The notes: generated from the sequence alone by a model not told the origin. Shown: positions 1 to 44,066, counted from the first letter of the stretch. The stretch: DNA of 44,066 nucleotides from a phage (GCA_029093145.1 GCA_029093145.1_4347.1); one strand, 5' to 3'. Translations and numbers: made by a program.

Positions 1-9
1 AATGACTAG

Positions 10-38
10 TTGACTATTACCTACGACCCTATTATATT
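10..38 (+). promoter_or_regulatory. sigma70-like promoter TTGACT-N17-TATATT upstream of first early gene
   Basis: TTGACT at 10-15, 17-nt spacer, TATATT at 33-38; SD GGAG then ATG at 72. Confidence 0.45.
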
Positions 39-71
39 TACTCCATCGACAACGAGAACGGAGTAGAGAAG

Positions 72-320
72 ATGAGTAACGTACAGACAATCGCAATAAC
101 CGAGGAACTTGAAGCCAAATGTATCGCATGGACTATGGGTAATGACCCGGTTGCTATGCGTAAATTTCCAATGAAAATCACAGACATCGAAGCATTCAAA
201 GATGCACAACTGATGGCACGCATCGCCGTTAGTAACCTGAGCAATAGCATCCCTGCGGACGCGTTCTGGTTCGCTGCAATGCAGACCCTGAAGGCCGCTT
301 ATGCAGGAGAGAAGAAATGA
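72..320 (+). CDS. hypothetical early protein (82 aa)
   Basis: ORF with SD GGAGTAGAGAAG upstream of ATG; first of a chain of overlapping small genes. Confidence 0.5.
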   Translation: MSNVQTIAITEELEAKCIAWTMGNDPVAMRKFPMKITDIEAFKDAQLMARIAVSNLSNSIPADAFWFAAMQTLKAAYAGEKK

Positions 321-514
321 AAGTTAAAGCCGCTAAAATTCTCTGGTTAGCCGCCCTTGACTATGTGACAGAGGGTAAAGTGTATGATGTATACAACCCG
401 ACAGCTACTGGTTTCGGTTATATAGTCGCCGACGACGACTGCGATATTTTCATAGACTTTGGTAACGATGAAGGTGATGGTTTCCACGGCGTTAAATGGG
501 AGGTTGTAGAATGA
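317..514 (+). CDS. small acidic hypothetical protein (65 aa)
   Basis: ATGA start/stop overlap with upstream gene; D/E-rich (ADDDCDIFIDFGNDEGDG). Confidence 0.5.
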   Translation: MKVKAAKILWLAALDYVTEGKVYDVYNPTATGFGYIVADDDCDIFIDFGNDEGDGFHGVKWEVVE

Positions 515-669
515 GCGAACAAGGTCAAGTAAGCCAACCACTACGGGTAGGCCGTAAAGTCAGCCACACCCCGTTCCCGACACGCGAGGAACTGATGAAA
601 CGTAACAGTTTCCCTGGGCCGGACAAGAACAAGTATCTCAATCGCATGTGGGGAGAGCGTAAAGAATGA
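511..669 (+). CDS. hypothetical small protein (52 aa)
   Basis: ATGA overlap with previous gene; hand-translated ORF below the track length cutoff. Confidence 0.35.
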   Translation: MSEQGQVSQPLRVGRKVSHTPFPTREELMKRNSFPGPDKNKYLNRMWGERKE

Positions 670-779
670 CTGACCGCGAATACGAGAAGGCATGCGTAGA
701 GTCGGCGCTAGGTATGTACGCTATTGAAGAGTGCGACAAGACGATTGCCGAATTAGAAAAGGCGTTATCTGTGGGGTAG
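666..779 (+). CDS. hypothetical small protein (37 aa)
   Basis: ATGA overlap with previous ORF; hand-translated. Confidence 0.3.
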   Translation: MTDREYEKACVESALGMYAIEECDKTIAELEKALSVG

Positions 780-785
780 ATACTA

Positions 786-956
786 ATGTTCAGCGACATC
801 AACGCAGCAATCGAAGAGGCAATCTGGCGCCGTTACAACGGCGAGCAACAGCGTCACTTCTGCCTGGTGCAACGCGGCAACATGGTCGCCGTAGTGCAGG
901 ACCGCGATAACAAATATCCGAATGCGATGTGGACGACGAGGAATTTCTTAGGATGA
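786..956 (+). CDS. hypothetical small protein (56 aa)
   Basis: ATG at 786; stop overlaps ATG at 953 of next gene. Confidence 0.35.
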   Translation: MFSDINAAIEEAIWRRYNGEQQRHFCLVQRGNMVAVVQDRDNKYPNAMWTTRNFLG

Positions 957-1189
957 TTACCAGCATTCCTAACCTTATTAAAGAATTTGGCACGATGGCG
1001 GAGACGTGCCGACAAACAGGCCTCAACGAAATGACGATTGCGAAGTACAGCAAAGACGTGAAATGCGAGCGCCATGTAATTTATAATAACCGCCTTATGA
1101 CGCACGTTAAGACAAGCCCGGTGTTATTCACGCGCCGCGGTATCACTAAAACAGAGCAACGAATCGCTAGAGGGGATGGCGGGGAATGA
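953..1189 (+). CDS. hypothetical protein (78 aa; track ORF 929-1189 with GTG start)
   Basis: ATG 953 overlaps stop of upstream ORF (GGATGATT); in frame with track ORF. Confidence 0.45.
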   Translation: MITSIPNLIKEFGTMAETCRQTGLNEMTIAKYSKDVKCERHVIYNNRLMTHVKTSPVLFTRRGITKTEQRIARGDGGE

Positions 1190-1458
1190 TTGGATATGAT
1201 AACTACCACATAAACCGGTGTGAGGCGCTTGAGTTTTTGTCCAGAAACTTCCGCGATTTCCCGGAGCACATGCCAAATGTACGCGAAGTCGCGGAGGGTA
1301 TTTCCGATAACATATTCAAAGGCTGGCGATTCGTCGTTATTGATTCTGGTGAGTTGGTTTTCGCTGACTGCCTTTCACCATGTATTCGTAAAATAGACCT
1401 TGAGGAATTTAATGCAACTTTTAGTCTTTCCGAATGCCTGGACTATAGCCGTAGCTAA
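1186..1458 (+). CDS. hypothetical protein (90 aa)
   Basis: ATGA overlap with upstream gene; followed by hairpin terminator. Confidence 0.5.
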   Translation: MIGYDNYHINRCEALEFLSRNFRDFPEHMPNVREVAEGISDNIFKGWRFVVIDSGELVFADCLSPCIRKIDLEEFNATFSLSECLDYSRS

Positions 1459-1540: not shown

Positions 1541-1634
1541 GTACATCCCGCCCAATCCCCTTATATAATCCCTTTAGACGCGCAGGGCGCGTCTGGTGCG
1601 CTCTGATGGTCAGACGCATATGCAAGGGGATTCT

Positions 1635-2180
1635 ATGAAGCTGAAACTCAAGCAGCCATCACCAGAGGTGGTGCAAGCTGCACATGAAGAAGCTGTTAGC
1701 GCAAACCGTCGCCGTAAACGACCGCGCGGTAAACAGAGCCTTTATCAATCATCCCGTAATTCCGCCGCGTTGTGGGACCCGGGCTATTGCGATGCACTAA
1801 TCGAGTTCTTCGACCGCACGTCGTGGGAGCTTGTGCCTACGTCTAAGGGTGACGAACGCCCGCTGATTCAGGATAAACCACCGTCACTGGCCCGCTTCGC
1901 CTTACACATCGGAGTCACTATCCCGATTATTAAGCTTTGGCTGCGTGAGATTCCCGCATTTGCAGAAGCCTGGGAGACGGCGCAGGCACTGGAAGAGGCG
2001 TACTTCACTGAGACAGGGGCTGCGGGCATCTCGGCTACGTTTGCCGCGGCTAAACTGGGCCTCAGCAAAGAGAAACCGGTTGCATCCACCGAAGAACCAG
2101 CACCGACTGAGATTGTTTTCAGTGTTGCGGAGCCTGTAGGTAAAATCGTAACAACGAACATGGGTGAGGTAGAGGAATGA
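1635..2180 (+). CDS. terS: terminase small subunit (putative)
   Basis: Immediately upstream of and overlapping the large terminase gene; basic N-terminal patch (NRRRKRPRGK); SD AAGGGGA before ATG 1635 (track ORF opens at 1596). Confidence 0.55.
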   Translation: MKLKLKQPSPEVVQAAHEEAVSANRRRKRPRGKQSLYQSSRNSAALWDPGYCDALIEFFDRTSWELVPTSKGDERPLIQDKPPSLARFALHIGVTIPIIKLWLREIPAFAEAWETAQALEEAYFTETGAAGISATFAAAKLGLSKEKPVASTEEPAPTEIVFSVAEPVGKIVTTNMGEVEE

Positions 2181-3427
2181 GTATTCAGCTATCCGCACCA
2201 CAGGCACTGTTCCTGAATTGCGATAACAAATACAAGGCCTATGTCGGAGGCTTCGGTAGCGGCAAGACATTTGTCGGCTGTCTCGACCTGCTTACGTTCA
2301 TGCTCCGGAACCCGGGTACCCGCCTGGGCTACTTCGGCCCCACCTACCCGGCTATCCGCGACATCTTCTACCCGACATTCGAGGAAGCGGCTAACCTCCT
2401 CGGCCTCGATGTGCTGGTTAAATCTGGCGACAAAGAAGTCGTGGTCACTCGCGGTAAGACGGTGCTCGGAACTGTTATCTGCCGCTCGATGGATAACCCC
2501 GGCTCGATAGTCGGCTTCAAAATCGCGGCTGCGGTCGTGGATGAGCTGGACGTATTGAGCCGTGAGAAAGCCGAGCTGGCGTGGAACAAAATCGTAGCCC
2601 GCATGCGTCTGGTTATCCCGGGGGTAATTAACCACATCTCCGTCACCACGACTCCGGAAGGGTTCAAGTTCGTTTACGCCAAGTTCAAGGAGAACCCGAC
2701 GCCGAGTTACTCAATGGTGCAGGCGTCCACTCACGAGAACGCCAGATTCCTGCCGCCGGATTACATTAGCTCGCTGACTGAGACTTACCCGGCGCAACTG
2801 ATTAACGCGTATCTGAACGGTGAGTTTGTCAACCTGACATCCGGAAGCGTGTATTACGCATACGACCGACGCAAGCACCGCAGCAAAGAGACAATTCAAC
2901 CGGGCGACACGCTGTACATCGGGCAGGACTTCAACGTTACGAAGAACGCCAGCGCCGTGTATGTGCAGCGTAAAGATGGATGGCACGCGGTTGCAGAACT
3001 GAAGGGCCTGTTCGATACGCCGGACACCGTGCGCGTAATTACCGAGAAGTGGAAGTCACAAGGCCACCGCATCGTCGTTTACCCCGACGCTAGCGGCAAG
3101 AACCGTAAGACAAACTCGGCGTCAATCTCTGATATTGCATTACTCCAGCAGGCGGGTTTCGATGTTCGCGCTAAATCAGCCAACCCCCCGGTTAAAGACC
3201 GCGTTTTAGCCGTGAACACCGCGCTGGAAAAAGGTAAGCTGTGGGTTAATGACCACTTATGTCCTGAGATAGCCAAGACGCTGGAACAGCAGGCATACGA
3301 CGATAACGGAGAGCCGGCTAAAGACGGCGTCATTGACCATATGGCTGATGCTCTCGGCTATCCTGTAGTTTATGAGATGCCGGTGGTTAAACCAGTAATC
3401 AACATCCCGGTGACTTTCGCACTTTAA
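2177..3427 (+). CDS. terL: terminase large subunit
   Basis: Walker A GGFGSGKT, Walker B-like AAAVVDELD, size 416 aa, position before portal. Confidence 0.9.
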   Translation: MSIQLSAPQALFLNCDNKYKAYVGGFGSGKTFVGCLDLLTFMLRNPGTRLGYFGPTYPAIRDIFYPTFEEAANLLGLDVLVKSGDKEVVVTRGKTVLGTVICRSMDNPGSIVGFKIAAAVVDELDVLSREKAELAWNKIVARMRLVIPGVINHISVTTTPEGFKFVYAKFKENPTPSYSMVQASTHENARFLPPDYISSLTETYPAQLINAYLNGEFVNLTSGSVYYAYDRRKHRSKETIQPGDTLYIGQDFNVTKNASAVYVQRKDGWHAVAELKGLFDTPDTVRVITEKWKSQGHRIVVYPDASGKNRKTNSASISDIALLQQAGFDVRAKSANPPVKDRVLAVNTALEKGKLWVNDHLCPEIAKTLEQQAYDDNGEPAKDGVIDHMADALGYPVVYEMPVVKPVINIPVTFAL

Positions 3428-3439
3428 GAGGATTATTAA

Positions 3440-4909
3440 ATGTTAACTATGAACGGTCAGAATCAGGGTGTTAAGACAAAACACCGGGAATGGCTGCATC
3501 ACTTCGATAAATGGCAGAAGGTACGCCACGCGCTGGAAGGCGACCTTATTCGCTATCTGCGCAACGTCGGGAAGAACGAACCTGACCCGACCTACGCAGC
3601 CCAGCGCCAGGAAGAATACGAGAACGGTGCTATCTGTTACAACTTCACTAAACGTACCCTGGCGGGGATGACGGGGTCAGTGATGCGCAAAGACCCTGAG
3701 CAGATTATCCCGCCTGAACTTGAGTACCTGTTGCACAACGCTGACGGTTCGGGTGTAGGGCTGTGGCAGCACGCGCAGGATACGTTAATGGAGATTGACT
3801 CGATAGGACGCGGTGGGTTGCTGGTGGATGCCCCGGAAACAGCCGCAGCAACGGCGGCAGAGCAGAACGCGGGATTATTAAACCCGGTAATCGCATTCTA
3901 TACCGCGGAGAACATTATCAACTGGAGACTCACCCGCATCGGTTCAGTGAACCGCGTGACGATGGTTGTATTGCGTGAGGCATGGGAATACTCGGAACCA
4001 GGCGCTGAGTTTGAAACAAAATTAGGCGAGCAATACCGCGTCCTTGACCTGATTGACGGTCGCTACCGCCAGCGCATCTACCGCTTCGATGCCGAAGGTG
4101 GTGCACAGGATGAAGTAATCGAAATCTTCCCGGAACTCGGCGAACAGTTGCGCGGTAAAATCCCGTTCACGTTCATTGGCGCAAGCAACAACGACGCCAC
4201 TATAGACGATGCGCCTTTACTGCCGTTAGCTGAGCTAAATATAGGACACTTCAGAAATTCGGCCGATGTGGAAGAGGCCAGCTTTATAGTAGGTCAACCG
4301 ACACTGTTCATTGCCCCCGGCGAGAACATGAGCATGGAGCAGTGGAAAGAAGCCAACCCACACGGCATACGCATGGGGTCGCGTTCAGGCCACAACATCG
4401 GCTCCGGCGGAAATGCGTTTCTGGTTCAGGCGGCGGAAACTAACCTCGCCAAACAGAATATGCTGGATAAAGAGAATCAGGCCATCCAGATTGGCGCGCA
4501 GCTTATCACCCCGACGCAGCAAATCACCGCGGAATCGGCCCGCCTGCAACGCGGCGCCGACACGTCAGTCATGGCAACAATAGCACGTAATGTAAGCATG
4601 GCGTATACCGATGCGTTGCGCTGGGTTGCGGGTATGCTTGGGCTTAGTGAAGATACTGAGATTGAATTCAAACTTAACATGGAGTTCTTCCTGCAACCGA
4701 TGACCGCTCAGGACCGTGCACAGTGGATGGCGGATATTAACGCGGGCCTGTTACCAGCTACTGCTTACTATGCGGCATTGCGTAAAGCAGGCGTAACCGA
4801 TTGGACCGATGAGGACATTCAGAACGCTATTGGGGACGCACCGCTGCCGTTGGGTGCGGTTGCTCAGGTAGCAGGAGAAATTCCGCAGTCCGCGCAACAA
4901 CAGGAGTAA
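3440..4909 (+). CDS. portal protein
   Basis: 489 aa ORF directly after terL with SD AGAGGA; canonical position. Confidence 0.8.
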   Translation: MLTMNGQNQGVKTKHREWLHHFDKWQKVRHALEGDLIRYLRNVGKNEPDPTYAAQRQEEYENGAICYNFTKRTLAGMTGSVMRKDPEQIIPPELEYLLHNADGSGVGLWQHAQDTLMEIDSIGRGGLLVDAPETAAATAAEQNAGLLNPVIAFYTAENIINWRLTRIGSVNRVTMVVLREAWEYSEPGAEFETKLGEQYRVLDLIDGRYRQRIYRFDAEGGAQDEVIEIFPELGEQLRGKIPFTFIGASNNDATIDDAPLLPLAELNIGHFRNSADVEEASFIVGQPTLFIAPGENMSMEQWKEANPHGIRMGSRSGHNIGSGGNAFLVQAAETNLAKQNMLDKENQAIQIGAQLITPTQQITAESARLQRGADTSVMATIARNVSMAYTDALRWVAGMLGLSEDTEIEFKLNMEFFLQPMTAQDRAQWMADINAGLLPATAYYAALRKAGVTDWTDEDIQNAIGDAPLPLGAVAQVAGEIPQSAQQQE

Positions 4910-4913
4910 ATAG

Positions 4914-4940
4914 AAAGGCCCCGCTAGGGGCCTTAGTTTT
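4914..4940. terminator. bidirectional terminator hairpin
   Basis: AGGCCCC-GCTA-GGGGCCT then TAGTTTT; sits between convergent genes. Confidence 0.6.
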
Positions 4941-5592
4941 AACGTATATTAGCCGCACATTTACGCACAACCCGAGGTATCGCCTCTTTCAGTTCACCCC
5001 ATGTATTAACGGCCTCCATGTCAAGAAGCGTCACCAGAGCTTTCTGGATGTCACTTCGCAACTGATTGGTCTTCGCATCCTGAGAGTCCCATGTATCGAA
5101 ACCCGTTACGTCGCGGATATCTACGGATTCCTTTACCGCTTTAGCCACCTGTATGAAGTGTCCACTGTGGCCAATTCTTCCCTCCGTGCGCTCGATCATT
5201 CGACTAACGGCAGCGTTAAGCTCGACAAAGCTCACCGCGCCAATGTTTCGTAGTTCTACCTGCCGTTGTGTGATAAAGCGGTCGATAACGAGGAAATGGA
5301 AATAGGCGCTGTATTGCTCAGCAATATATACTGCCAGATGGAGACATGCAAAGGTGCGACCGTTTCGGCCTTTCGTCGCCCTTATGGCATTCTCGATTCC
5401 GAGTTGTTTTTCGCATTCCTCCTTGAAAATCTTGAAGCCATCCGTTGCCATGACCTGGCGAAGCTCTCTGGCCCCCATGCCGTTGTCTAAACGCCAACGG
5501 TTCATCTGGTCAACCAGCTCGTTTACGTTAATAAAGTTTTCACGGTCAAAAGTGATTTCTCCATAAGGGAACTCTAATGTTTGCAGTTTCAT
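4939..5592 (-). CDS. KilA-N/APSES-type DNA-binding protein (antirepressor-like)
   Basis: N-terminal region resembles KilA-N pattern (INVNELVD ... GRTFACLHLAVYIAEQ); antisense to flanking structural genes; SD AGGAGA. Confidence 0.4.
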   Translation of the reverse strand: MKLQTLEFPYGEITFDRENFINVNELVDQMNRWRLDNGMGARELRQVMATDGFKIFKEECEKQLGIENAIRATKGRNGRTFACLHLAVYIAEQYSAYFHFLVIDRFITQRQVELRNIGAVSFVELNAAVSRMIERTEGRIGHSGHFIQVAKAVKESVDIRDVTGFDTWDSQDAKTNQLRSDIQKALVTLLDMEAVNTWGELKEAIPRVVRKCAANIR

Positions 5593-6778: not shown

Positions 6779-7239
6779 TGATGGGCTTTTTCAAAGTAAC
6801 TGACGTACCGTCTCGTCGCGTAGTCCAGTACGCCCGCGTGTCTGGCTCTGGCGAGAACGTGGTATTTATTGGGGACGAAAGTGTACTCGGTACACCGGTA
6901 GATGATATGCCGTTTGCATATAAAACCGGTATTGCGTTGCCCGCCGCCGGTATGCTTTATGAAATTCCGTATCTGGCGGACGCTGGCGACGTGTATTTCT
7001 CTGCGCAACCGCAGGACGCTGAACTGGCGGGCGGCAGCGCAACCATCACTGTCGAGGTTAAGGCAGGCAAAGCGCCGTATTCTCTGACCTGGTACAAAGA
7101 CGGTAAGGAAGTGGTGAATGCGCCTGAGGAGGCTCTGTCTCTGACGGTTAATGCGGTCGGCGAATACTTCGTTAAAGTTACCGATGCCGGTGGCGTAGAG
7201 GCCGTCAGTAAAGCGGCGAAGGTCGCTAAACCAGAATGA
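6778..7239 (+). CDS. Ig-like domain protein (possible capsid/virion decoration)
   Basis: Ig-like motif ATITVEVKAGKAPYSLTWYKDGKEV ... GEYFVKVTDAGG. Confidence 0.55.
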   Translation: MMGFFKVTDVPSRRVVQYARVSGSGENVVFIGDESVLGTPVDDMPFAYKTGIALPAAGMLYEIPYLADAGDVYFSAQPQDAELAGGSATITVEVKAGKAPYSLTWYKDGKEVVNAPEEALSLTVNAVGEYFVKVTDAGGVEAVSKAAKVAKPE

Positions 7240-7242
7240 TAA

Positions 7243-36643: not shown

Positions 36644-36859
36644 ATGCAACCATCTGAACTAGGCACCCGTGTAGAACAACGCCGTAAAGAACTCGGCATC
36701 TCCCAGCGCCGTTTGGCGGCCCTGACCGGCGTTTCCCAGGGCGCGATTAACCAACTGGCACTTGGAGTAACTCAGGACGTCCGCCCGGCAACGCTGTTCA
36801 AACTGGCGGAAGTTCTGGAAGTAGACGCCAAGTGGCTGGCGTTAGGTGAAGGGGCTTAA
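36644..36859 (+). CDS. Cro/CI-type HTH (XRE family) transcriptional regulator
   Basis: ISQRRLAALTGVSQGAINQLALG helix-turn-helix; SD AAGGAG; divergent from replication operon. Confidence 0.85.
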   Translation: MQPSELGTRVEQRRKELGISQRRLAALTGVSQGAINQLALGVTQDVRPATLFKLAEVLEVDAKWLALGEGA

Positions 36860-36875
36860 AGCCCCTTTCTTTTTA
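36849..36875 (+). terminator. rho-independent terminator
   Basis: AAGGGGC-TTAAA-GCCCCTT followed by TCTTTTT. Confidence 0.6.
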
Positions 36876-36876
36876 C

Positions 36877-39144
36877 CTATTCCAAATCCTCCTCTGTCAC
36901 TGTCAACATTTCATTCGGTTCGTATATTGTCTTTGGAATCTTGTTATCAGTTATTCTGGTGTTCAGCCTGTAACGACCTGGGATTATCTGATTGTTTTCG
37001 TCAGTACCCGGAACAAGATACCCGGCCTCAACCATTTTCTTAATCTTCCCGCGTTCTATGGCTTCTTTGGAGTTAAACGCCTTTGCGTTTGGGTCTGACT
37101 GTGCGAGCTTATTCGCCGCGGCGACTGTGATGCCTTCGTTGCCGTTGTAGGTTCCTTCCGCCAGTTCAAACGCCGCGAGTATCGTGGCCTCCGAACTGTT
37201 GACGGCGTTCTCTACGGTTTTACGTACATTTTCTTTACCTTCTTTCGTCAACCCTTCTTCCCGCTCTTTCTCCTCGTCAGTTTTGAACGGCTCGAAACCC
37301 CACGGCATCAACACAAGCGCCTTGTGTGGTTCAGGCAGGTCCAGGTTTACGATTGTGCCGTATTCCTCTGTGCTACCCAGGAACTCAACCGCTCGGTATT
37401 CTTTAGGTGGCGGCGCTTCACGGAACTGTACCGACTCCAGCACCATGCCAACCGTCTTCTGCTGAGGCCCGTGCTTGAATTTCGAGTGATATACGTTTAT
37501 CTGACGGTCGGTTGCACGTTCGATTGTCAGTTCCACATCAACACCCGCATACAGCGCCCCACTGCCGCGTGCTTTCTTTCCACCCTTCGGCGTATGGTGG
37601 ACAACGCCTACTGCGGCTTTAGTTGCATCGCGTACTTCTTTCAGAATGGCGATAACTTTACCCATGCCGATTGCTGTTGATGAACTGTTCTCGTCGAACT
37701 TATCAATCGTCAGTGCCAGGGTCTGGTTAAGGGTGTCGAACGCAACCATGCCAATTGGCTCGTCGCCAGCAGTTTCGCGCATTAACTTAATCAGGCTTTT
37801 AAGTTTGCCGACTTCGCCCATATCGATGACATGTACATAATCTTTACCTTCCTCGCCGTATTTAGCCGCGAGCGCATCAATACGTGTACGTGTGGCTGCC
37901 CCACCCTCGCCGTCGATATAGAAATGGTGACAACGCTGGGTGTCAGCCCCTGCAAACCGGTATCCGGCGGCGCTCAGGTACATCATCCCCAGCGTATAGA
38001 ATGATTTGTACGTGCCCGATCCTCCGACGATACCCCAGATACAATCCGACGGCATGTACCCCTCAACGACGAAATCAGCCTTTACCGGCTCCGGTAACTC
38101 GTCCTCCTCTGAGTCCTCGTCGTCTTCCAGGTCGTCGAGGCTGCATGAGACAGATTCACGCGCCCCCCAACCGATGGCCTCTGCGACTTCACTGAACGGC
38201 AGCCCGGTCGCATCGCACGCGTACTTCCACACCTCTTTCGGTGACAGGCCTTCTGTCGCCGTAATGTCTGTGTCGTGAATCATGGTTACGTTTGGCGCTT
38301 CATACCCCTCGCGCGGGAAGCACAGCAGGAAGTCGTCCGGGCGCGGTGTCGGGTCGCTGTAGTTTTCGGCATGTTCCGGTGTGGCTGGCATCTTAAGGCC
38401 GCGCGGCGTCATGACGCCGCCGTACTCAAACGCCAGTGCTTCAAACGCGTCTGTAAACGCGGTGCGCAGTTCTTCCGGTATCTGGTAATCCGATGCGCTG
38501 CTAACGTCAACGGCTGGGATGCCTTCCAGTAACTCGTTCGGGTCGATCAGGTCGTTGCGGCGCGACCAGATAACGGTAGCGCCGACCGGCGGCAGGTACA
38601 TCGGCTGCGACAGAGTGAACCCGCTGCGGTCCGCACCCATGCCTTTGAAGAAGTGCTCCAGCAACCCATGACGAACACGGATGATATCACCACCCTCAAC
38701 TGGGCGGGCCAGCGGCATGACGACGCGAAAGCGAGGCGACTCATCGGTATGTGATGCCGTGGTGTAGAGACACATCGCCCGGCAGCTGCGATTAACCAGG
38801 CGCACCGCTTCCTGGTACTCTTCCGGTGTTGCACTGTCGAAGTCCAGATACGCCAGCGACGATTTGCTCACAGACGCGTCACAGCGATAGAAGAAGCCTT
38901 TACGCGCTTGTTTAAAGCCACCGGTTTCCGGGTCTTTTACGGTGCTGTGTGTAGAATCGCACGCGGCCGTGATATAACCGGGCGCAGTCTTGGGGTTAAT
39001 CCCGTCACGAACGGCATCGAGCGGCTGGATTAACTCTTTCAGGTCGTCCAGTGTTGCCGTGTGTGCGGTTCTGACATTTATATCCTTTTTCCCCGCCCGC
39101 GCGTTGCGGCGTGACCACGAGTAGGATAAAATTACATCGGACAT
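36877..39144 (-). CDS. primase-helicase (AEP-type primase-polymerase domain fused to RecA-like ATPase)
   Basis: N-terminal YLDFD and TTASHTD motifs (AEP-like); central Walker A GGSGTYKS and Walker B GMVAFDTL. Confidence 0.6.
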   Translation of the reverse strand: MSDVILSYSWSRRNARAGKKDINVRTAHTATLDDLKELIQPLDAVRDGINPKTAPGYITAACDSTHSTVKDPETGGFKQARKGFFYRCDASVSKSSLAYLDFDSATPEEYQEAVRLVNRSCRAMCLYTTASHTDESPRFRVVMPLARPVEGGDIIRVRHGLLEHFFKGMGADRSGFTLSQPMYLPPVGATVIWSRRNDLIDPNELLEGIPAVDVSSASDYQIPEELRTAFTDAFEALAFEYGGVMTPRGLKMPATPEHAENYSDPTPRPDDFLLCFPREGYEAPNVTMIHDTDITATEGLSPKEVWKYACDATGLPFSEVAEAIGWGARESVSCSLDDLEDDEDSEEDELPEPVKADFVVEGYMPSDCIWGIVGGSGTYKSFYTLGMMYLSAAGYRFAGADTQRCHHFYIDGEGGAATRTRIDALAAKYGEEGKDYVHVIDMGEVGKLKSLIKLMRETAGDEPIGMVAFDTLNQTLALTIDKFDENSSSTAIGMGKVIAILKEVRDATKAAVGVVHHTPKGGKKARGSGALYAGVDVELTIERATDRQINVYHSKFKHGPQQKTVGMVLESVQFREAPPPKEYRAVEFLGSTEEYGTIVNLDLPEPHKALVLMPWGFEPFKTDEEKEREEGLTKEGKENVRKTVENAVNSSEATILAAFELAEGTYNGNEGITVAAANKLAQSDPNAKAFNSKEAIERGKIKKMVEAGYLVPGTDENNQIIPGRYRLNTRITDNKIPKTIYEPNEMLTVTEEDLE

Positions 39145-39202
39145 GTTGTATTTCCTTCAGCAAGTAATTTGGCCTCGGCGTTCACCGCGTCGGGGCTTTC
39201 TT

Positions 39203-39436
39203 TTATTCCAGGTCTTCTAAAGTAGCGGTCATTCCGCGAACTTCAGCAAAGGCACTATATTTCCCGCCAACATTTTTCACGACGCCAGATTTAACCAGCA
39301 CTTTTAACGACCCTTCAATAATGACGGAACTATAGTACTTAAAATAACTGCGGCGCAAGTCGATAACGCTGCACGACCCTTTTTTACGTGTTAATGAAAC
39401 GACTGCCGTAAATACGCGTGACTGGAACTCGGTCAT
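39203..39436 (-). CDS. hypothetical protein (77 aa)
   Basis: Overlaps HTH gene start by 4 nt; shares C-terminal LEDLE tail with two replication proteins. Confidence 0.45.
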   Translation of the reverse strand: MTEFQSRVFTAVVSLTRKKGSCSVIDLRRSYFKYYSSVIIEGSLKVLVKSGVVKNVGGKYSAFAEVRGMTATLEDLE

Positions 39437-39630
39437 TTTACATTCTCCTTAATCCACGCTTCCACTTTCTCCCGGTCAAACGTACCTGGCTGACGGCGGC
39501 CCATAATGCGGACACAACAATCCGGGAACTTCCCACTCTTTAACCAGTTATTCAGCGTGCGACGGGTAACCCCGATACGCTCAGCTACCTCATTCTGTGT
39601 CATCCTCAAGCCCCCATTATCAGTTAACAA
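39433..39630 (-). CDS. AlpA/excisionase-like HTH DNA-binding protein
   Basis: MTQNEVAERIGVTRRTLNNWLKSGKFP helix-turn-helix. Confidence 0.6.
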   Translation of the reverse strand: MLTDNGGLRMTQNEVAERIGVTRRTLNNWLKSGKFPDCCVRIMGRRQPGTFDREKVEAWIKENVK

Positions 39631-39635
39631 AATCG

Positions 39636-39664
39636 AGTATACATTGTGAATAATGGGAAATCAA
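39636..39664 (-). promoter_or_regulatory. sigma70-like promoter TTGATT-N17-TATACT
   Basis: Minus strand TTGATTTCCCATTATTCACAATGTATACT upstream of HTH gene. Confidence 0.4.
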
Positions 39665-40039
39665 ACATAATCGCACCTATTGACATTATGAAAATCTTCG
39701 TTTAAGGTGCTTTTATATCTTAGTTACTTTGATTCTTGTTCACCTTGTAATACCCGCTTGAAACGCAGCGGCGCACCAGCGCCAGCGAAGTGTTAAGCGG
39801 CAGATTACTGAACATATGAATTATCGTAACTTTCCTTCCTAAGTATCTCAGGTTGCCCTGGGCAAGCTCTATTCTCATCGACGGCATATCTCTTAAGTAT
39901 CTGATAATTAAAAGTTTCTATAGTTGCCGTGAGCAAGGTAGAGAGTACTTCACTCCGCTGGGGTGGGCTAACGCCCACCCACTGCGTTGCGTACTCTTTT
40001 AAGAAACGAAAGAATCACAACGGCAACGTAACTATTCTC

Positions 40040-40068
40040 TTGCACACCCCAACATAATAGGTTACTAT
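40040..40068 (+). promoter_or_regulatory. class B promoter TTGCAC-N17-TACTAT
   Basis: TTGCACACCCCAACATAATAGGTTACTATTCA; dyad 40056-40069. Confidence 0.5.
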
Positions 40069-40102
40069 TCACTTATCGAAACGAGACATAAGGAATTTAG
40101 AA

Positions 40103-40321
40103 ATGAACAAAGCGACCGCAAGCGTAGTTTCCGCAATCAAACAAGTTTACGGCATCGATATTTCAGAGCGCGTAATTATCGGGAACAAACGCAACTTCTT
40201 TACGTTCGGCACCGACGGTATGGATGAAAATGATTTTGTTAACGTACAACGTTTCGCTAACGGTAAAGGACTTCGTAACGAGCCAGCGGGTTACAAGAAA
40301 TTTGCTATCTACTTTAAATAA
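40103..40321 (+). CDS. hypothetical protein (72 aa)
   Basis: SD AAGGAA; downstream of class B promoter. Confidence 0.5.
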   Translation: MNKATASVVSAIKQVYGIDISERVIIGNKRNFFTFGTDGMDENDFVNVQRFANGKGLRNEPAGYKKFAIYFK

Positions 40322-40442
40322 ACCCACGGCGCCGAATCATGGCGCCAGTGCCGACGACTCTGAGGGAGGTTGCCGTGAATAATTACCCGTTTATTTTAAT
40401 TGCCAGCGCCGTTTATGTGGCGCACGCGTTGTGGGGGTTGGT

Positions 40443-40598
40443 ATGAGAATCCGTATAACTGACCGCAGGCTTATAGATTTCGGTATCTCGGTAGGTGATG
40501 TTTTTCTGGCGTTCAGCAGCAACCATTATGGGTATATGATTGAGTACAAAGGGTCGCTATTGTTCGTGTATCGGGATGAATGCGAGGTTCTGGTATGA
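40443..40598 (+). CDS. hypothetical small protein (51 aa)
   Basis: Hand-translated ORF. Confidence 0.3.
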   Translation: MRIRITDRRLIDFGISVGDVFLAFSSNHYGYMIEYKGSLLFVYRDECEVLV

Positions 40599-40738
40599 GA
40601 GAAGCATTCGAACGGTGGGCCATCGTCGAGGGTCTGCCGGTTAATAAGGGTTCGAAGAAAGAGTACCTGAACGTTAAGACGCGTCTCGCGTGGCGGGCGT
40701 GGAAAGCTGGTGCGCAAGCTGTGATGAATAAGGGGTGA
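40595..40738 (+). CDS. hypothetical small protein (47 aa)
   Basis: ATGA overlap with upstream ORF. Confidence 0.3.
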   Translation: MREAFERWAIVEGLPVNKGSKKEYLNVKTRLAWRAWKAGAQAVMNKG

Positions 40739-40741
40739 TTT

Positions 40742-40927
40742 ATGGGCGAGTGGATTAAGTGTAGTGAGCGGATGCCGGAGCCTTATGAATACGTTCTTGT
40801 AACTGATTGTTTTGTTGGCTGTGAGGTTATGCGTGTTAATTCAGATGGCTACTGGGGGCCTGCAAAGAGTTTATATCACGGTGATATAACGCACTGGATG
40901 CCGTTACCTGAGCCGCCGGAGGTGTGA
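40742..40927 (+). CDS. DUF551-like phage protein
   Basis: C-terminal HWMPLPEPPEV motif recalled as typical of this family. Confidence 0.4.
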   Translation: MGEWIKCSERMPEPYEYVLVTDCFVGCEVMRVNSDGYWGPAKSLYHGDITHWMPLPEPPEV

Positions 40928-41051
40928 TGTTCAATAGTTCGGGATTTTACTGAGTGACTTACGCTGCTACACAGCAGCGTATCATTTTTCTCATTTTTGT
41001 TCTATTTCACCAAACGCAACAATCGAAGCGACTATTGCAGGAGATGCAACA

Positions 41052-41228
41052 ATGGAAACGTTCACAGAGAAACTTATGTGGTGCGTTGCAAAGCGAGACG
41101 CTGCGGCCAGAAGCTACCGTAAATGTGCCAACTGCGGCAGCGAGCAGGTACAGCTAATCTCGTACCTGGGCGGCACGGTTACACATAAGTGTCGAAAGTG
41201 CCATCACGTACATTCACAACACCAATAA
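41052..41228 (+). CDS. small zinc-ribbon protein (58 aa)
   Basis: SD AGGAG; CANCG ... CRKCH four-cysteine pattern (hand-translated; track shows a different frame 40954-41157). Confidence 0.4.
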   Translation: METFTEKLMWCVAKRDAAARSYRKCANCGSEQVQLISYLGGTVTHKCRKCHHVHSQHQ

Positions 41229-41235
41229 AATTTAC

Positions 41236-41264
41236 TTGCACACTAAGATAGAATAGGCTACTAT
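41236..41264 (+). promoter_or_regulatory. class B promoter TTGCAC-N17-TACTAT
   Basis: TTGCACACTAAGATAGAATAGGCTACTATTCA; dyad 41252-41265. Confidence 0.5.
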
Positions 41265-41295
41265 TCATTTACACGAACGAGAGGAGAGACAGAAG

Positions 41296-41421
41296 ATGAA
41301 AGATTATAGTGAAGTAACTTTAGGCGAGTTGCAGGACGAGTACGAAGATATGCTCTACCCGTTCATCTGCGACGGAGATTACAACGGCGTCTATAACGGA
41401 GTGAGCGAAGAATATGAATAG
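41296..41421 (+). CDS. hypothetical small acidic protein (41 aa)
   Basis: SD GAGAGGAGAG; hand-translated. Confidence 0.35.
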   Translation: MKDYSEVTLGELQDEYEDMLYPFICDGDYNGVYNGVSEEYE

Positions 41422-41923
41422 CAAAAACGAAGTATTTGAGTACCTGATTAACCAACTACGGCAGCAGGTGAGTAACAACCCATATAAGCAACAGTGCGAA
41501 GACTTGGCGCATGAGGTGCAGTCACTCAAGAATCAGTTACGTGATGCGTCAGCACTGGTGGCGGAGTTACATGAAACAATAAAACTAATGAACGAGGACT
41601 TTAACCGTGCAACCGGGCGAGGTGGCTCACTGCCGAAAGGGGAGAGCTACGTAGTAGGTGAACATGGGCCCGAGCAATCCGGTTGCCGTAAGGAAGATAC
41701 TCAGGAATGCGAGCACTCTTGGATTATTATGCCTGGGTTGTTTCTCAGCGAAGGCAATACGAACAACGTTCCTGGTAGTGAGCTTTGCTCTAAATGTGGT
41801 AAACGTGAGTGGGACGACAAGGAATATAAACCGAAAAACGATACACAGGAGTGCGAGCATGAATGGGAATATTATTACCCCGACGGTAGGCGTTGTACCA
41901 AATGCGGGGTGATAAACTTATGA
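41414..41923 (+). CDS. hypothetical protein with repeated Cys/His motifs
   Basis: Repeats DTQECEH(S/E)W and C(S/T)KCG; N-terminal coiled-coil-like region. Confidence 0.5.
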   Translation: MNSKNEVFEYLINQLRQQVSNNPYKQQCEDLAHEVQSLKNQLRDASALVAELHETIKLMNEDFNRATGRGGSLPKGESYVVGEHGPEQSGCRKEDTQECEHSWIIMPGLFLSEGNTNNVPGSELCSKCGKREWDDKEYKPKNDTQECEHEWEYYYPDGRRCTKCGVINL

Positions 41924-42123
41924 CCAGCATCTTATTTATCTGGGTACTGTCCGCAGGCCAGATGCACCTCGCGGCATCGGAAACGTTTTATTCTATGGAG
42001 GCGTGCCAGTCCGCGGCACGCGCAGCAGAGAACGCGCACTTCCTGTTTCAGGGTGACAAGCCCAACGATTCGGAGGTACGCGCTATCTGCTCACCTAAGC
42101 GACTTGGTAAACAGGAGAAGTGA
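41920..42123 (+). CDS. small putative secreted protein
   Basis: ATGA overlap; N-terminal hydrophobic signal-like segment MTSILFIWVLSAGQMHLAAS. Confidence 0.45.
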   Translation: MTSILFIWVLSAGQMHLAASETFYSMEACQSAARAAENAHFLFQGDKPNDSEVRAICSPKRLGKQEK

Positions 42124-42125
42124 TT

Positions 42126-42407
42126 ATGGTACAGAGATACGATTTAAAAGAAGACTGGGTTACGGGGCGTATTGACTTAGAGAAAGACGCAGACGGTGAC
42201 TGGGTTGATTACGAAGACTACGCGGAACTTGAGCGTAAGTTCAATGAACTCAGGACATGGCGTACGCAGATACTCAATGACGCTTTCGACTTTTTATCGC
42301 AGGCAGAAAAAGCGGAAGCCGAGTTGCAGAAATACAAGGACCAGTTCCCGGATTACGTAGAGTGCGCGAACTGCGGGTCAATTACACATGTGGAAGGGGT
42401 GGAGTGA
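42126..42407 (+). CDS. hypothetical protein, paralog A
   Basis: SD AGGAG; shares MV(Q/H)RY start and WV-x-YEDYAEL-x-RK motif with next gene. Confidence 0.5.
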   Translation: MVQRYDLKEDWVTGRIDLEKDADGDWVDYEDYAELERKFNELRTWRTQILNDAFDFLSQAEKAEAELQKYKDQFPDYVECANCGSITHVEGVE

Positions 42408-42586
42408 TGGTGCATAGATACGAAAACGACCACGGCGATATGTTTCAGGCCGCGGGAGGGCGCTGGGTCCTATACGAAGACTACGCGGAGCTGGCGCGTA
42501 AACTGCGCGAGCTTGCTAAGCAGGTAGTAAACAGTCCGTGCGACTGGAAGACGGATGAATTAGCGCGCGAGATTCTGGACCTATGA
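42407..42586 (+). CDS. hypothetical protein, paralog B
   Basis: Overlapping start; MVHRYENDHG ... RWVLYEDYAELARK. Confidence 0.45.
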   Translation: MVHRYENDHGDMFQAAGGRWVLYEDYAELARKLRELAKQVVNSPCDWKTDELAREILDL

Positions 42587-42876
42587 GCCTTGCAACTGAC
42601 ATCCTGAAACGGAGCGGCCTTGCGCCGCTGTCGCCGAGAGCGAACACACGAATATACAAGCGTCGCCGTAACGTGCTGTACCCAGAGATTCAGGACAGAC
42701 GTAAAGCTATCCGCGCCTGTGGATTCCAGAACGGGAAGGCTGTGAATCTCGGTGAGTTTAAAACGCAGGAACGTGCGGCTATCGCTAATCGGTTATTTAA
42801 TTACTGGAAATCGCTGGGTTATGAAGATATTCCGACGAAACCACAGAGACGACAATACATCTGGCGTCATAAATAA
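42583..42876 (+). CDS. hypothetical basic protein (97 aa)
   Basis: ATGA overlap with upstream gene. Confidence 0.5.
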   Translation: MSLATDILKRSGLAPLSPRANTRIYKRRRNVLYPEIQDRRKAIRACGFQNGKAVNLGEFKTQERAAIANRLFNYWKSLGYEDIPTKPQRRQYIWRHK

Positions 42877-42951
42877 ACCGTTATTAAGATAATTCCTAAC
42901 CGTGCTATCCTCCAGTTACTGCATACTTAATACGCACCTGGAGGATTCATC

Positions 42952-43260
42952 TTGGATAAATTTACTGAAACAGTGACAGGCTGGCTTCTCGCTGCCGCGC
43001 TAGCCGGAGGGGTAATCGGACTACGACAACATAAGTCTGTTATTTCTGGCCCCATCGACGGATTCTGCTTTATCGCAACTGGCTTCACTTGCGCTGTATT
43101 CGGCGCGCCTCTTGCCGCTCAATGGTTCGGTATTACCGGAGAGCGCGAGATAGCTGGCCTCGGATTCATCATCGCAATTCTCTGGATGCCCATCTATTCC
43201 CGTCTCTCCGGTATCGTCTCTGGAGAATACATCGCTCGTCGAGGAGGCACAGATGAATGA
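42952..43260 (+). CDS. holin (putative, multi-TM)
   Basis: TTG start with SD GGAGG; hydrophobic segments; immediately upstream of endolysin region. Confidence 0.5.
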   Translation: MDKFTETVTGWLLAAALAGGVIGLRQHKSVISGPIDGFCFIATGFTCAVFGAPLAAQWFGITGEREIAGLGFIIAILWMPIYSRLSGIVSGEYIARRGGTDE

Positions 43261-43525
43261 GTTATTCTGGTTCGGTGGTATGCTGGCAATCGGGGGCACA
43301 TCGCTGTTTAATGTGTATCATCCCAGCGTGGACGACGGATTATTTGGCCGGGTGCTCTATATCCAGACTGCCATCGTCTGTGCTGCCGGATGTATCCACC
43401 TGTTACAGGGCAGCATGTCACCGACGCTGCCTGAGACATTAATCACATTAGTTGCGCTGCGCCAGATTCGTCAGGCGTGGCTGTCATACGGAGGGCATAA
43501 GCGTGTCTCGAAATATTTCAGATAA
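43253..43525 (+). CDS. small membrane protein (holin/antiholin partner candidate)
   Basis: SD GGAGG; hydrophobic segments LFWFGGMLAIGG and IQTAIVCAAGCIHLL. Confidence 0.45.
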   Translation: MNELFWFGGMLAIGGTSLFNVYHPSVDDGLFGRVLYIQTAIVCAAGCIHLLQGSMSPTLPETLITLVALRQIRQAWLSYGGHKRVSKYFR

Positions 43526-43991
43526 TGGATTGCATTTCTGTGCCGCGTTCGAGGGATTCCGCGGAACTGCGTATCGCGCTACGCCGAATGAGAAGTACCT
43601 GACGATAGGCTATGGGCACTATGGGCCGGACGTAACACCTGGCAGGACCATCACGCCAGGGCAGGGCCTCCTGTTACTGAATCGCGATATGGCTAAGGCC
43701 GTAGCCGCGGTCGATGCCGCAGGACACCATTCACTGACACAGGCACAGTTCGACGCCGTGTGTGACCTGGTCTATAACGCCGGTGCTGGTGTGATTGCGG
43801 CTACTACCGGCACGGGTAAGGCTCTGTGTTCCGGCGATATTGCAACACTGCGGGCTAAGCTGGCGCTGTTCATCAACCAGAACGGCAAGCCGTTACTCGG
43901 CCTGCGTCGCCGTACAGCCGGGCGTCTGGCGCTGTTCGACGGTAAACCGTGGCAAGAGGCTGAGGCTATTGGGCGCGCGGTGAAAGGTTGA
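43452..43991 (+). CDS. endolysin, GH24 lysozyme family
   Basis: FEGFRGTAYRATPNEKYLTIGYGHYG lysozyme motif; true start may be GTG 43503 preceded by GGAGGG. Confidence 0.85.
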   Translation: MRCARFVRRGCHTEGISVSRNISDNGLHFCAAFEGFRGTAYRATPNEKYLTIGYGHYGPDVTPGRTITPGQGLLLLNRDMAKAVAAVDAAGHHSLTQAQFDAVCDLVYNAGAGVIAATTGTGKALCSGDIATLRAKLALFINQNGKPLLGLRRRTAGRLALFDGKPWQEAEAIGRAVKG

Positions 43992-44066
43992 CACCTGAGA
44001 CTAATCCGACGATACTTAAATCACCTCCTGTCCCATACCTCTGCTCTCCAGTTTTATCCCGGCCCT

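Follow-up and report, generated by a model that had tools for sequence, protein, structure and literature searches.

The stretch of DNA analyzed here (the window, 44,066 nucleotides in full) raises the question of whether it represents the genome of a virulent phage, and if so how that genome ends, or a piece of a prophage cut off from its integrase and attachment sites. The 44,066-bp window is the complete genome of a phage of the well-known genus Kagunavirus (Guernseyvirinae), predicted to be an E. coli siphophage of a routine kind. Taken together, the data are very probably best explained by a complete lytic Kagunavirus genome that lacks lysogeny machinery, is permuted, and was cut at an arbitrary point.

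Genome organization

Each module expected of such a phage was found once, as the initial annotation had described, using Pfam, PHROGs, and annotation transfer from phage fEg-Eco06. The features are given below with position, strand, and, where relevant, source.

1..44066 (no strand): complete, circularly closed genome (relatives' alignments, joined ends)
72..1458 (+): small genes of unknown function between endolysin and terS (DUF2737, NinH-like gene, several PHROGs)
1596..4909 (+): packaging genes TerS, TerL, and portal (Pfam, PHROGs)
1596-2180 (+): TerS
2177-3427 (+): TerL, Terminase_6N/6C (Pfam)
3440-4909 (+): portal, DUF4055
4939..5592 (-): moron-like gene, 217 aa (phrog_6095 'amidase'; weak Pfam KilA-N)
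5735..14265 (+): head, neck, and tail-tube genes, among them connectors and tail terminator (Pfam, fEg-Eco06 annotation)
5735-6778 (+): MuF-like minor head protein
6778-7239 and 10242-10583 (+): Ig-domain proteins, head decoration according to the fEg-Eco06 annotation
7269-7472 (-): small gene within the head cluster
7789-8235 and 8081-8344 (+): spanins (i-spanin, o-spanin), inside the head gene cluster
8373-9128 (+): scaffold
9131-10180 (+): major capsid protein
10620-14265 and 16871-27966: neck and tail genes
13093-14265 (+): tail tube
14294..16719 (-): leftward operon of nucleotide and repair genes (Pfam, fEg-Eco06 annotation)
16782..16846 (+): conserved three-helix RNA element heading the tail operon (matches Rfam RF02996, int-alpA, at threshold)
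16871..27966 (+): tail operon, including a DUF1833 protein (Pfam, PHROGs, fEg-Eco06 annotation)
17278-17284 (+): GGAAAAG in the -1 frameshift-type overlap of the tail assembly chaperone
17645-19984 (+): tape measure protein
20017-20835 (-): endonuclease gene interrupting the tail operon
21123-22529 (+): distal tail protein
23045-23410 (+): small protein, peptidoglycan endopeptidase according to the fEg-Eco06 annotation
23401-25968 (+): J-like central fibre
25981-27966 (+): tailspike, last of the tail genes
27995..39630 (-): replication and regulation module, including a Toprim protein and a VRR-NUC protein named from the fEg-Eco06 annotation (Pfam, PHROGs, fEg-Eco06 annotation)
28641-30071 (-): SNF2 helicase
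30783-32954 (-): family A DNA polymerase
33015-33641 (-): DUF2815 ssDNA-binding protein
33924-35186 (-): DUF2800/PD-(D/E)XK nuclease, the 'Cas4-like' nuclease of the initial annotation
36644-36859 (+): Cro-like HTH_3 gene
36877-39144 (-): helicase-primase
39433-39630 (-): HTH_17 protein, 65 aa (Pfam, phrog_66)
39631..40102 (no strand): noncoding region of ~400 nt between divergent operons, with a promoter and operator at 40040-40075
40103..43991 (+): small genes (DUF551, others) followed by lysis genes (Pfam, PHROGs, fEg-Eco06 annotation)
42952-43260 and 43253-43525 (+): two holin-like genes
about 43503-43991 (+): lysozyme-type endolysin

The leftward operon encodes a dNMP kinase, a PNK-type phosphatase, an Mre11/SbcD-like phosphoesterase, and a T4 Imm-like superinfection immunity protein (Pfam). 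Lysis genes had been placed at the right edge of the window, which is correct for the holins and endolysin (42952-43991) but not for the spanins, which lie in the head module at 7789-8344. Nothing was found to show that the small genes at the left edge (72-1458), previously called early, are in fact early. The genome carries a divergent TerL lineage, the TerL of phage phiEc4 being 100% identical.

Taxonomic placement

Megablast searches with the two genome halves matched 498 and 526 phage records, respectively. The best matches were Escherichia Kagunaviruses at ~89-95% identity and 67-90% coverage per half, and approximately 100 Escherichia phages of 43-45.5 kb were found among relatives at ~89-95% identity. 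Kagunavirus relatives include vB_EcoS-phiEc4 (MZ576218), BEU33/BEU35, fEg-Eco06 (PQ141284), vB_EcoS-22664BS2, VB_EcoS-Golestan (NC_042084), EcoPhCCP1 (PQ384582), and the BASEL phages Bas70-76; Escherichia Kagunaviruses have genomes of 43-45.5 kb, in which genes are ordered and grouped by strand as they are here. The majority of matching records, largely Salmonella phages, fell in the 60-90% identity bands for both halves. Salmonella phages of the genera Jerseyvirus (SETP3, SE2, wksl3, Kenya-K47) and Cornellvirus share the subfamily and module architecture but differ in host and have lower nucleotide similarity.

The fEg-Eco06 record is classified as Guernseyvirinae, Kagunavirus, and 64 of its 76 annotated proteins align in the genome (three of the 64 weakly or partially), with the shared genes alike in order and strand. 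The fEg-Eco06 tailspike is 95.8% identical to its counterpart here. Relative to fEg-Eco06, the genome lacks the minor head protein intein, the Dcm methyltransferase, NinX, and the RNA polymerase inhibitor gene, and has gained the 217-aa gene and a 272-aa endonuclease gene. The 217-aa gene has a form typical of Jerseyvirus, whose counterparts are ~73-90% identical to its product.

The ICTV demarcates genera at ~70% or more genome-wide nucleotide similarity and new species at less than 95%. Identity multiplied by coverage over both halves, estimated by hand from megablast without a VIRIDIC calculation and thus a lower bound, was ~0.77 for phiEc4, 0.77 for BEU33, 0.76 for fEg-Eco06, and 0.72 for 22664BS2, i.e. 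above the genus value for these Kagunavirus members. No record among the phage matches covered the whole genome at 95% or more. The values of ~72-77% for the best relatives point to a distinct species, and on this rough measure the phage probably constitutes a new species within a known genus. The whole-genome comparison proposed in the initial annotation places the genome in Kagunavirus, a genus reported as strictly lytic. Kagunavirus and Guernseyvirinae have been placed in the family Sarkviridae (PMC12919940). By analogy with relatives, for which micrographs are available (PMC12645636; bioRxiv 10.1101/2024.09.12.612763), the phage would have siphovirus morphology and E. coli as its host.

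Genome ends and packaging

The genome had been described as near-complete; it is complete, as both ends adjoin one another inside relatives. An artificial join of the end to the start aligned inside relatives without interruption over 827 nt. The join was a single piece in phage Bas73, where identity was 90.5%, and likewise in Bas72, Bas74, and XY2, and 56 records covered at least 80% of it at one place. Since the ends are contiguous inside relatives, the cut point is arbitrary and nothing host-derived lies 'outside'; flanking host genes, att sites, or an integrase beyond the ends, which had been named as evidence to the contrary, have no flank in which to reside. The cut point is intergenic, 75 nt past the endolysin stop codon. 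In agreement with the earlier claim, no direct repeat was found between the two ends, the longest overlap of prefix and suffix being 0 with only chance matches of up to 10 nt, and no cos-like feature was recognizable at the ends. The records of relatives begin at differing points of one circular map.

A circularly permuted assembly, raised in the initial annotation as one alternative, is most likely the physical explanation for the absence of a terminal repeat. This is consistent with the varied starts of the records, with PhageTerm having detected no termini in Kagunavirus fBC-Eco01 (PMC9825357), and with headful packaging in Jerseyvirus, for which PhageTerm and a restriction profile of the circular type have been reported (PMC10783031). 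Concatemers would most likely be packaged by a headful mechanism into circularly permuted, terminally redundant virion DNA, and such packaging would explain a self-closing assembly with neither a terminal repeat nor a cohesive end in its sequence. TerL is only ~54% identical to the TerL of Jerseyvirus, for which headful packaging was demonstrated, and no TerL relative of solved structure was found in the PDB. These points count against the headful mode, which we infer as most likely.

The virion DNA could instead have defined physical ends, either cohesive or formed by a short direct terminal repeat that was merged into one copy during assembly, with the cut arbitrary or located at a real end. 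A collapsed repeat would be invisible in a finished sequence, the cut does fall in an intergenic region, and TerL here is only ~54% identical to that of the other Guernseyvirinae; furthermore, PhageTerm returned no determination, rather than 'headful', for two Kagunaviruses (PMC9825357, PMC13507304). However, both TerL types of Guernseyvirinae share the Terminase_6N/6C Pfam domains, K1G and K1H have TerL proteins that group with those of headful packagers (PMC5582158), and neither the circular-type Jerseyvirus profile nor the many differing start points of deposited relatives nor the lack of any repeat or cos-like feature is in keeping with fixed ends. Defined ends are thus considered unlikely, and headful packaging of permuted DNA is preferred.

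Lysogeny functions and lifestyle

A Pfam scan of the 74 curated genes detected no integrase, resolvase/recombinase, ParA/ParB, or CI-type/S24-type repressor, and the same domains were absent from the ten longest alternative-frame and antisense ORFs, which upholds the earlier report that integrase and partition genes are missing. The reported absence of excision genes needs one qualification: the 65-aa HTH_17 protein (39433-39630, - strand) matches phrog_66 'excisionase and transcriptional regulator' (E 5.6e-11), but it has no accompanying integrase. This protein and a 71-aa HTH_3 protein were the only regulators found. Lacking an integrase, an excisionase-integrase pair, a partition system, and a CI-type repressor, the phage, judging by its gene content, has no known means of establishing stable lysogeny.

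A search of 5,426 complete genomes of E. coli at megablast sensitivity detected no integrated copy of this phage type, the sole match being a 133-153-nt piece of a DUF551 gene in nine genomes. Published accounts describe Kagunaviruses as lytic, with no genes for lysogeny (PMC7203180, PMC12919940, PMC9825357), although 'integration and excision' annotations were reported in one member (PMC13507304). The gene content, the absence of E. coli prophage copies, and the lytic relatives all support the virulent phage that had been suggested.

A temperate prophage fragment, with integrase and attachment sites just beyond the ends, is scarcely credible. Weak hints in its favor are the Cro-like HTH_3 protein, the 'excisionase' label of the HTH_17 protein, the Rfam match to an RNA whose name derives from integrase and alpA genes, and NinH-like and DUF551 genes, which are common to lambdoid prophages; on the other hand, the ends join in dozens of independently sequenced, equally long relatives, leaving no 'outside', E. 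coli genomes hold no integrated copy, and the characterized relatives are all lytic. The contiguity of the end-to-start join in relatives effectively refutes this reading. Persistence without integration (a carrier state, pseudolysogeny, or a plasmid-like episome), which would make 'virulent' an oversimplification, was suggested by one record in a collection of 72,556 plasmids. CP088689.1, a circular sequence of 44,086 bp named 'plasmid pC16EC0033-2' in the assembly of a clinical E. coli blood isolate, is a whole Kagunavirus genome with 95.6% identity to the genome here over 60% of a 24-kb query. It indicates that some persistence in culture, or contamination, does occur, but contamination of the culture by a lytic phage explains it equally well. 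With one such plasmid, no copy in the complete RefSeq E. coli genomes, and no partition, plasmid-replication-control, or repressor genes by Pfam, persistence of this kind is very unlikely for the phage, and a strictly lytic genome remains the favored interpretation.

Promoters and predicted infection cycle

Inspection of the sequence itself revealed sigma-70-like promoters at 9-38 and about 43993-44025. The palindrome AATAG-N4-CTATT, which recurs at promoters, is present in 11 copies compared to 1.04 expected; surroundings were read for all copies except those at 21002 and 41252, and nine of the 11 were placed by eye at promoter-like intergenic sequences. The same promoter consensus has been reported for fBC-Eco01 (PMC9825357). 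Cumulative GC skew reaches its minimum in the noncoding region at 39631..40102, which we regard as a candidate for a control region or an origin.

In the predicted cycle, the tailspike probably recognizes a surface glycan, as relatives depend on glycan receptors (bioRxiv 10.1101/2024.09.12.612763). Phage genes would then be transcribed by host sigma-70 RNA polymerase from promoters bearing AATAG-N4-CTATT, the predicted operator to which a small phage HTH regulator probably binds. Replication would be carried out by the phage family A polymerase, helicase-primase, SNF2 helicase, ssDNA-binding protein, and PD-(D/E)XK (Cas4-like) nuclease, and, following packaging, lysis by the two holin-like proteins, the lysozyme-type endolysin, and the spanin pair encoded elsewhere in the genome.

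A predicted structured RNA at the start of the tail operon

Int-alpA RNA is reportedly a candidate sRNA defined bioinformatically in the survey of Weinberg et al. 2017. The family (RF02996) is named after neighboring integrase and alpA genes, a neighborhood that we take to be defining. The element at 16782-16846 matched the full RF02996 model (1-71) at 36.6 bits, compared to a gathering score of 35.8, and shares with it an outer stem, two internal hairpins, and conserved CUAG, GAAAAGCGGG, and CUGG stretches. The orthologous elements of 14 relatives fell below threshold, with Snoke at 32.5 bits and the 13 others yielding nothing at E up to 0.01. The int-alpA RNA is not mentioned in the main text of the survey (PMC5737381).

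In an alignment of 15 phages including the genome here, which represent only about three independent clades, 97.4% of cells were paired and both-side changes occurred in four of 13 pairs, with at least one per helix. The same three-helix structure was predicted independently by RNAalifold. This covarying, putative leader RNA is kept across Kagunavirus, Jerseyvirus, and Cornellvirus, maintained by compensatory changes.

An integrase/alpA neighborhood is absent: the genome has no integrase, and its only AlpA/Xis-like gene, encoding the HTH_17 protein, is 22 kb away. Blastn detected no similarity between the element and E. coli genomes. In all 15 aligned phages, those of Jerseyvirus and Cornellvirus included, the next gene after the element is that of the tail assembly chaperone. 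Here, an extended -10 sequence, TGCTAGAAT, is located just upstream, and the element begins at about the predicted transcription start site. The element keeps a fixed place at the start of a late structural operon, which points to a leader acting in cis and not to an sRNA acting in trans. We tentatively propose that it is a functional cis-acting leader of the 11-kb tail operon, where it might serve in processive antitermination or as a signal for RNA stability or processing. It may also share ancestry with the int-alpA RNAs known from bacterial integrative elements. If true, the relationship would for the first time set this orphan Rfam family in a defined genetic context, and in a lytic phage that is tractable.

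Relatedness and genome completeness

Comparison of the two halves of the window with 50,697 phage records (megablast) yielded approximately 500 matching records per half. The best matches were Escherichia phages of 43-45.5 kb, with ~89-95% identity over 67-90% of each half, and the top relatives were vB_EcoS-22664BS2, fEg-Eco06, phiEc3, phiEc4, BEU33, BEU35, Golestan, EcoPhCCP1, and several BASEL phages. The record of fEg-Eco06 (PQ141284), used here as the classified reference, carries the taxonomy Caudoviricetes, Guernseyvirinae, Kagunavirus, and recent work assigns the group to the new family Sarkviridae (PMC12919940). A total of 64 of the 76 annotated fEg-Eco06 proteins aligned in the window (three of them weakly or partially), with order and strands kept. 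Features of fEg-Eco06 without a counterpart in the window include the minor head protein intein, the Dcm cytosine methyltransferase, NinX, a gene for an RNA polymerase inhibitor, and some further small ORFs; differences between the two genomes are located at 5735-6778, ~30071, ~35726-35770, and ~700-930. At an identity of at least 95%, none of the 50,697 phage records spanned the window in full, and coverage multiplied by identity for the closest relatives was ~0.72-0.77 (hand-combined, a rough lower bound and not a VIRIDIC value), suggesting that the genome most likely represents a new species inside the known genus Kagunavirus.

Absence of a terminal overlap or repeat in the window agrees with the initial annotation, which saw no direct repeat between its ends. 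When the last 1,500 nt and the first 1,500 nt were joined, the junction fell inside a single alignment block in fEg-Eco06. An 827-nt artificial join of window end to window start was found as one uninterrupted piece inside Bas73 (100% coverage, 90.5% identity), as well as in Bas72, Bas74, and XY2, and at least 80% of this join was covered at one place in 56 records. The genome was cut between genes, in a region rich in promoters, 75 nt past the stop codon of the endolysin. Since the ends are contiguous within relatives, the window is an entire, circularly closed genome. The earlier description of a near-complete phage genome therefore stands except for the word "near", and the flanking host genes or integrase that had been named as grounds for refuting this description cannot apply to a genome closed on itself. 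The whole-genome comparison proposed at that stage placed the window in Kagunavirus, whose members are published as lytic; the earlier observation is confirmed and its interpretation supported, the genome being complete and typical of a lytic Kagunavirus. It adds one more genome to a genus of which some hundred members have been sequenced and whose lytic biology is well described.

Gene content

A set of 74 curated genes was compared with Pfam, and small or unusual genes were also compared with PHROGs. ARAGORN detected no tRNA genes in the window.

Table. Gene modules and individual genes (window positions; strand where assigned)
1596-2180, TerS, packaging
2177-3427, TerL (Terminase_6N/6C), packaging
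3440-4909, portal, packaging
4939-5592 (-), 217-aa gene flanked by those for the portal and the minor head protein
5735-6778, MuF-like protein, head
Head, scaffold and two proteins with Ig domains (decoration proteins in the fEg-Eco06 annotation)
7789-8235 (+), i-spanin
8081-8344 (+), overlapping o-spanin, lipobox LSAC read from the translation
9131-10180, major capsid protein, head
10620-14265, neck and tail tube genes
14294-16719 (leftward), accessory operon: dNMP kinase, PNK-type phosphatase, Mre11/SbcD-like phosphoesterase, T4 Imm-like superinfection immunity protein
16871-27966, tail operon: chaperone, tape measure, distal tail protein, DUF1833 protein, J-like fibre, tailspike
20017-20835 (-), 272-aa gene with CapR/DUF723 and T5orf172/MUG113 domains, endonuclease PHROGs (phrog_681)
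27995-39630 (leftward), replication block: Toprim protein, SNF2 helicase, VRR-NUC (fEg-Eco06 annotation), family A polymerase, DUF2815/Enc34-type ssDNA-binding protein, DUF2800/PD-(D/E)XK nuclease, RepA-like helicase-primase
36644-36859 (+), 71-aa HTH_3 (Cro-like) protein
39433-39630 (-), 65-aa HTH_17 protein, phrog_66 "excisionase and transcriptional regulator" (E 5.6e-11)
40103-43991 (rightward), small genes, two holin-like genes, lysozyme-type endolysin

The nuclease initially called "Cas4-like" is the DUF2800/PD-(D/E)XK nuclease of the replication block. Lysis genes had been placed at the right edge, which holds for the holins and endolysin (42952-43991) but not for the spanin pair; the latter is encoded within the head gene cluster, between the head decoration and scaffold genes, and on the circular map is ~8 kb away from the other lysis genes. 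The chaperone ORF ends in GGAAAAG TAG (17278-17293, +) and is followed by an ORF at 17293-17652 in the -1 frame, the layout expected for the programmed G/GT frameshift usual in siphophages. Antisense ORFs at 10188-10751, 17184-17612, and 30395-30790 were rejected as genes upon comparison with fEg-Eco06 and had no Pfam matches. Between the divergent operons, a noncoding region of ~400 nt with GC-rich hairpins (39631-40102) coincides with the cumulative GC skew minimum and is a candidate control or replication-origin region.

Terminase lineages and packaging

The lineage of the 416-aa TerL is represented in 74 records at an identity of at least 95%; after these, the best matches were to a Vibrio phage (56.5%) and to all other Guernseyvirinae (~54%). 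In contrast to the window, fEg-Eco06 and all Jerseyviruses encode a 423-aa TerL type, ~54% identical to the 416-aa type; the genus Kagunavirus has two TerL lineages. TerS was 97% identical to that of fEg-Eco06, but the alignment stopped at 145 of 169 residues; its C-terminal part (3' end of the gene, ~2030-2180) seems to have been exchanged together with TerL.

A closed assembly without repeats fits headful packaging. The alternative, a collapsed terminal repeat or cos ends, draws on the divergence of the window TerL lineage, for which, as for the 217-aa protein and the tailspike, sequence searches returned no relative of solved structure and so did not inform on packaging type or tailspike specificity. 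Among relatives, PhageTerm detected no termini in the Kagunavirus fBC-Eco01 (PMC9825357), P1-like headful packaging was assigned to the Jerseyvirus K47 by PhageTerm and restriction profile (PMC10783031), and the terminases of K1G and K1H group with headful packagers (PMC5582158). Because the window TerL lineage is only ~54% identical to that of other Guernseyvirinae, the headful inference is weaker here than for those phages; a collapsed terminal repeat or cos ends are considered unlikely. The records of relatives begin at many different points (TerL, TerS, and others), as is expected when the physical end is not known.

Lysogeny functions and lifestyle

No Phage_integrase, Resolvase, Recombinase, ParA/ParB, or peptidase-S24 repressor domains were detected in the 74 genes or in the ten longest alternative-frame ORFs. 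The 71-aa HTH_3 and 65-aa HTH_17 proteins are the only DNA-binding regulators in the genome. The initial annotation had reported no integrase, excision, or partition genes; absence of integrase and partition genes was borne out, while the HTH_17 protein bears an "excisionase" PHROG label. Because the genome is without an integrase, we read this protein as a small transcription or DNA-binding factor, encoded at the front of the helicase-primase operon. The same label probably explains the "integration and excision" genes reported in a lytic Kagunavirus (PMC13507304), an annotation that is likely spurious. The practical value of the genome is a clean annotation, complete and without lysogeny, partition, or recombinase genes. 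Absence of such genes is the usual safety criterion for therapeutic phages.

In a search of 5,426 complete E. coli genomes with both halves of the window, the only match was a stretch of 133-153 nt from a DUF551 gene, present in nine genomes. Kagunavirus relatives are described as lytic and without lysogeny genes (PMC7203180, PMC12919940, PMC9825357). The lack of lysogeny genes, the lack of integrated copies in E. coli, and the published lytic relatives all uphold the earlier suggestion of a virulent phage. Non-integrative persistence in the host retains a small probability, prompted by CP088689.1 ("pC16EC0033-2", circular, 44,086 bp), a complete Kagunavirus genome deposited as a plasmid of an E. 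coli blood isolate from South Korea. It was the sole such record in the plasmid collection and aligned with 60% of the query at 95.6% identity. CP088689.1 has no plasmid maintenance genes, and likely explanations for the record are that the culture taken for sequencing was contaminated with phage or was in a carrier state.

A search of 185,579 species genomes with the major capsid protein returned seven loci. The closest (94% protein identity) was located on scaffold23 of Taishania pollutisoli (Bacteroidota; NZ_JACVEL010000023.1, 13,130 bp). Throughout the 11.5 kb compared, this scaffold runs collinear with the phage (70-84% DNA identity), so it probably represents a contaminating or stray contig of an enterobacterial phage rather than a prophage. 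The remaining loci were 35-44% identical, including a distant match inside a 255-kb Vreelandella contig, and are uninformative on the lifestyle of this phage.

Putative promoters and operator

Repeat analysis revealed two promoter-like repeat families and five bidirectional GC-rich terminator hairpins.

Table. Repeated transcription signals (window positions)
30291-30324, 33705-33738, 36546-36579 (all -), TTGACA-N17-TATAGT family
40040-40075 (+), 7493-7528 (-), 16728-16763 (-), TTGCAC-N17-TACTAT family
4910, 7239, 14265, 27961, 32970, terminator hairpins
7499, 16734, 30301, 33715, 36556, 40056, 41252, AATAG-N4-CTATT, perfect
5, 7590, 21002, 36600, AATAG-N4-CTATT, one mismatch

The palindrome AATAG-N4-CTATT is present in all six promoter repeats, where it overlaps the spacer or the -10 element. 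With up to one mismatch allowed, 11 copies were observed compared to 1.04 expected, and none of 100 shuffles reached 11. Placement, read for nine of the 11 (all but 21002 and 41252), was intergenic and promoter-like. The same consensus occurs in fBC-Eco01, where it was ascribed to a phage RNA polymerase (PMC9825357). Because Pfam scans found no RNA polymerase domain in the curated genes of the window, we read the repeats as host-polymerase (sigma-70-like) promoters that would bear an operator for a dimeric phage regulator. The palindrome is probably the operator of a small phage HTH regulator. For the candidate operator sequence AATAGCTAGCTATT, the putative binders are the 71-aa HTH_3 and 65-aa HTH_17 proteins, the former being the obvious candidate.

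The left-edge genes (72-1458) are rightward, follow the endolysin, and have their own sigma-70-like promoters spanning the cut point. Nothing supports their initial designation as early. In the only Kagunavirus transcriptome (K1B4), which is too coarse for the timing of left-edge genes, the NinH homologue seems to fall into the middle class (PMC12645636).

A structured RNA, possibly a leader

Rfam yielded one match at the gathering threshold, to the full model of RF02996 "int-alpA" (16782-16846, +; 36.6 versus 35.8 bits). The element opens the tail operon at its 5' end, with the divergent Imm operon on one side and the gene for the tail assembly chaperone on the other, and begins a few bases past the extended -10 sequence TGCTAGAAT. 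A 106-nt region was kept in 484 phage records (358 of them Salmonella phages), with ~75-82% identity centred on the element, and in 14 of 14 relatives fetched for alignment (Kagunavirus, Jerseyvirus, Cornellvirus, and unclassified) the element was directly upstream of the chaperone gene. In the 15-sequence alignment a three-helix structure was 97.4% paired, with both-side changes in four of 13 pairs and at least one per helix; all slid controls were far worse, and unguided RNAalifold gave the same three helices. We consider the element to be a real structured RNA, perhaps with a role as a cis-acting leader.

Homology to int-alpA is uncertain. The orthologues all scored below the RF02996 threshold (Snoke 32.5 bits, the other 13 nothing at E up to 0.01), and the setting is a late structural operon with no integrase or alpA gene nearby. 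No blastn match to the element was found in the E. coli genomes, and a search of the E. coli K-12 CP4-57 intA-alpA region for int-alpA found only tmRNA. The main text of Weinberg 2017 makes no mention of the motif, and the one other paper found to name it merely lists it. The two remaining TTGCAC-type promoters (7493-7528 and 40040-40075) are not accompanied by the element. That it is a functional regulatory RNA related to int-alpA is a tentative and rather doubtful proposal. The leader RNA, which covaries and is shared throughout the subfamily, the promoter palindrome, and the two TerL lineages could guide work on transcription timing in lytic siphophages that lack an RNA polymerase.

Mosaic genes

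The 217-aa gene was present in 335 Salmonella phage records and in only three Escherichia phage records, with the EcoPhCCP1 copy 99.5% identical. Its PHROG label "amidase" is doubtful because it conflicts with a weak Pfam KilA-N match and a Vibrio phage homologue annotated as KilA; this label and "excisionase" are probably misleading pipeline assignments. The 272-aa gene is an insertion that separates the tape measure gene from that of the distal tail protein. No relatives more than 42% identical to its product were found in the 50,697 phage records, and it probably encodes a free-standing homing endonuclease.
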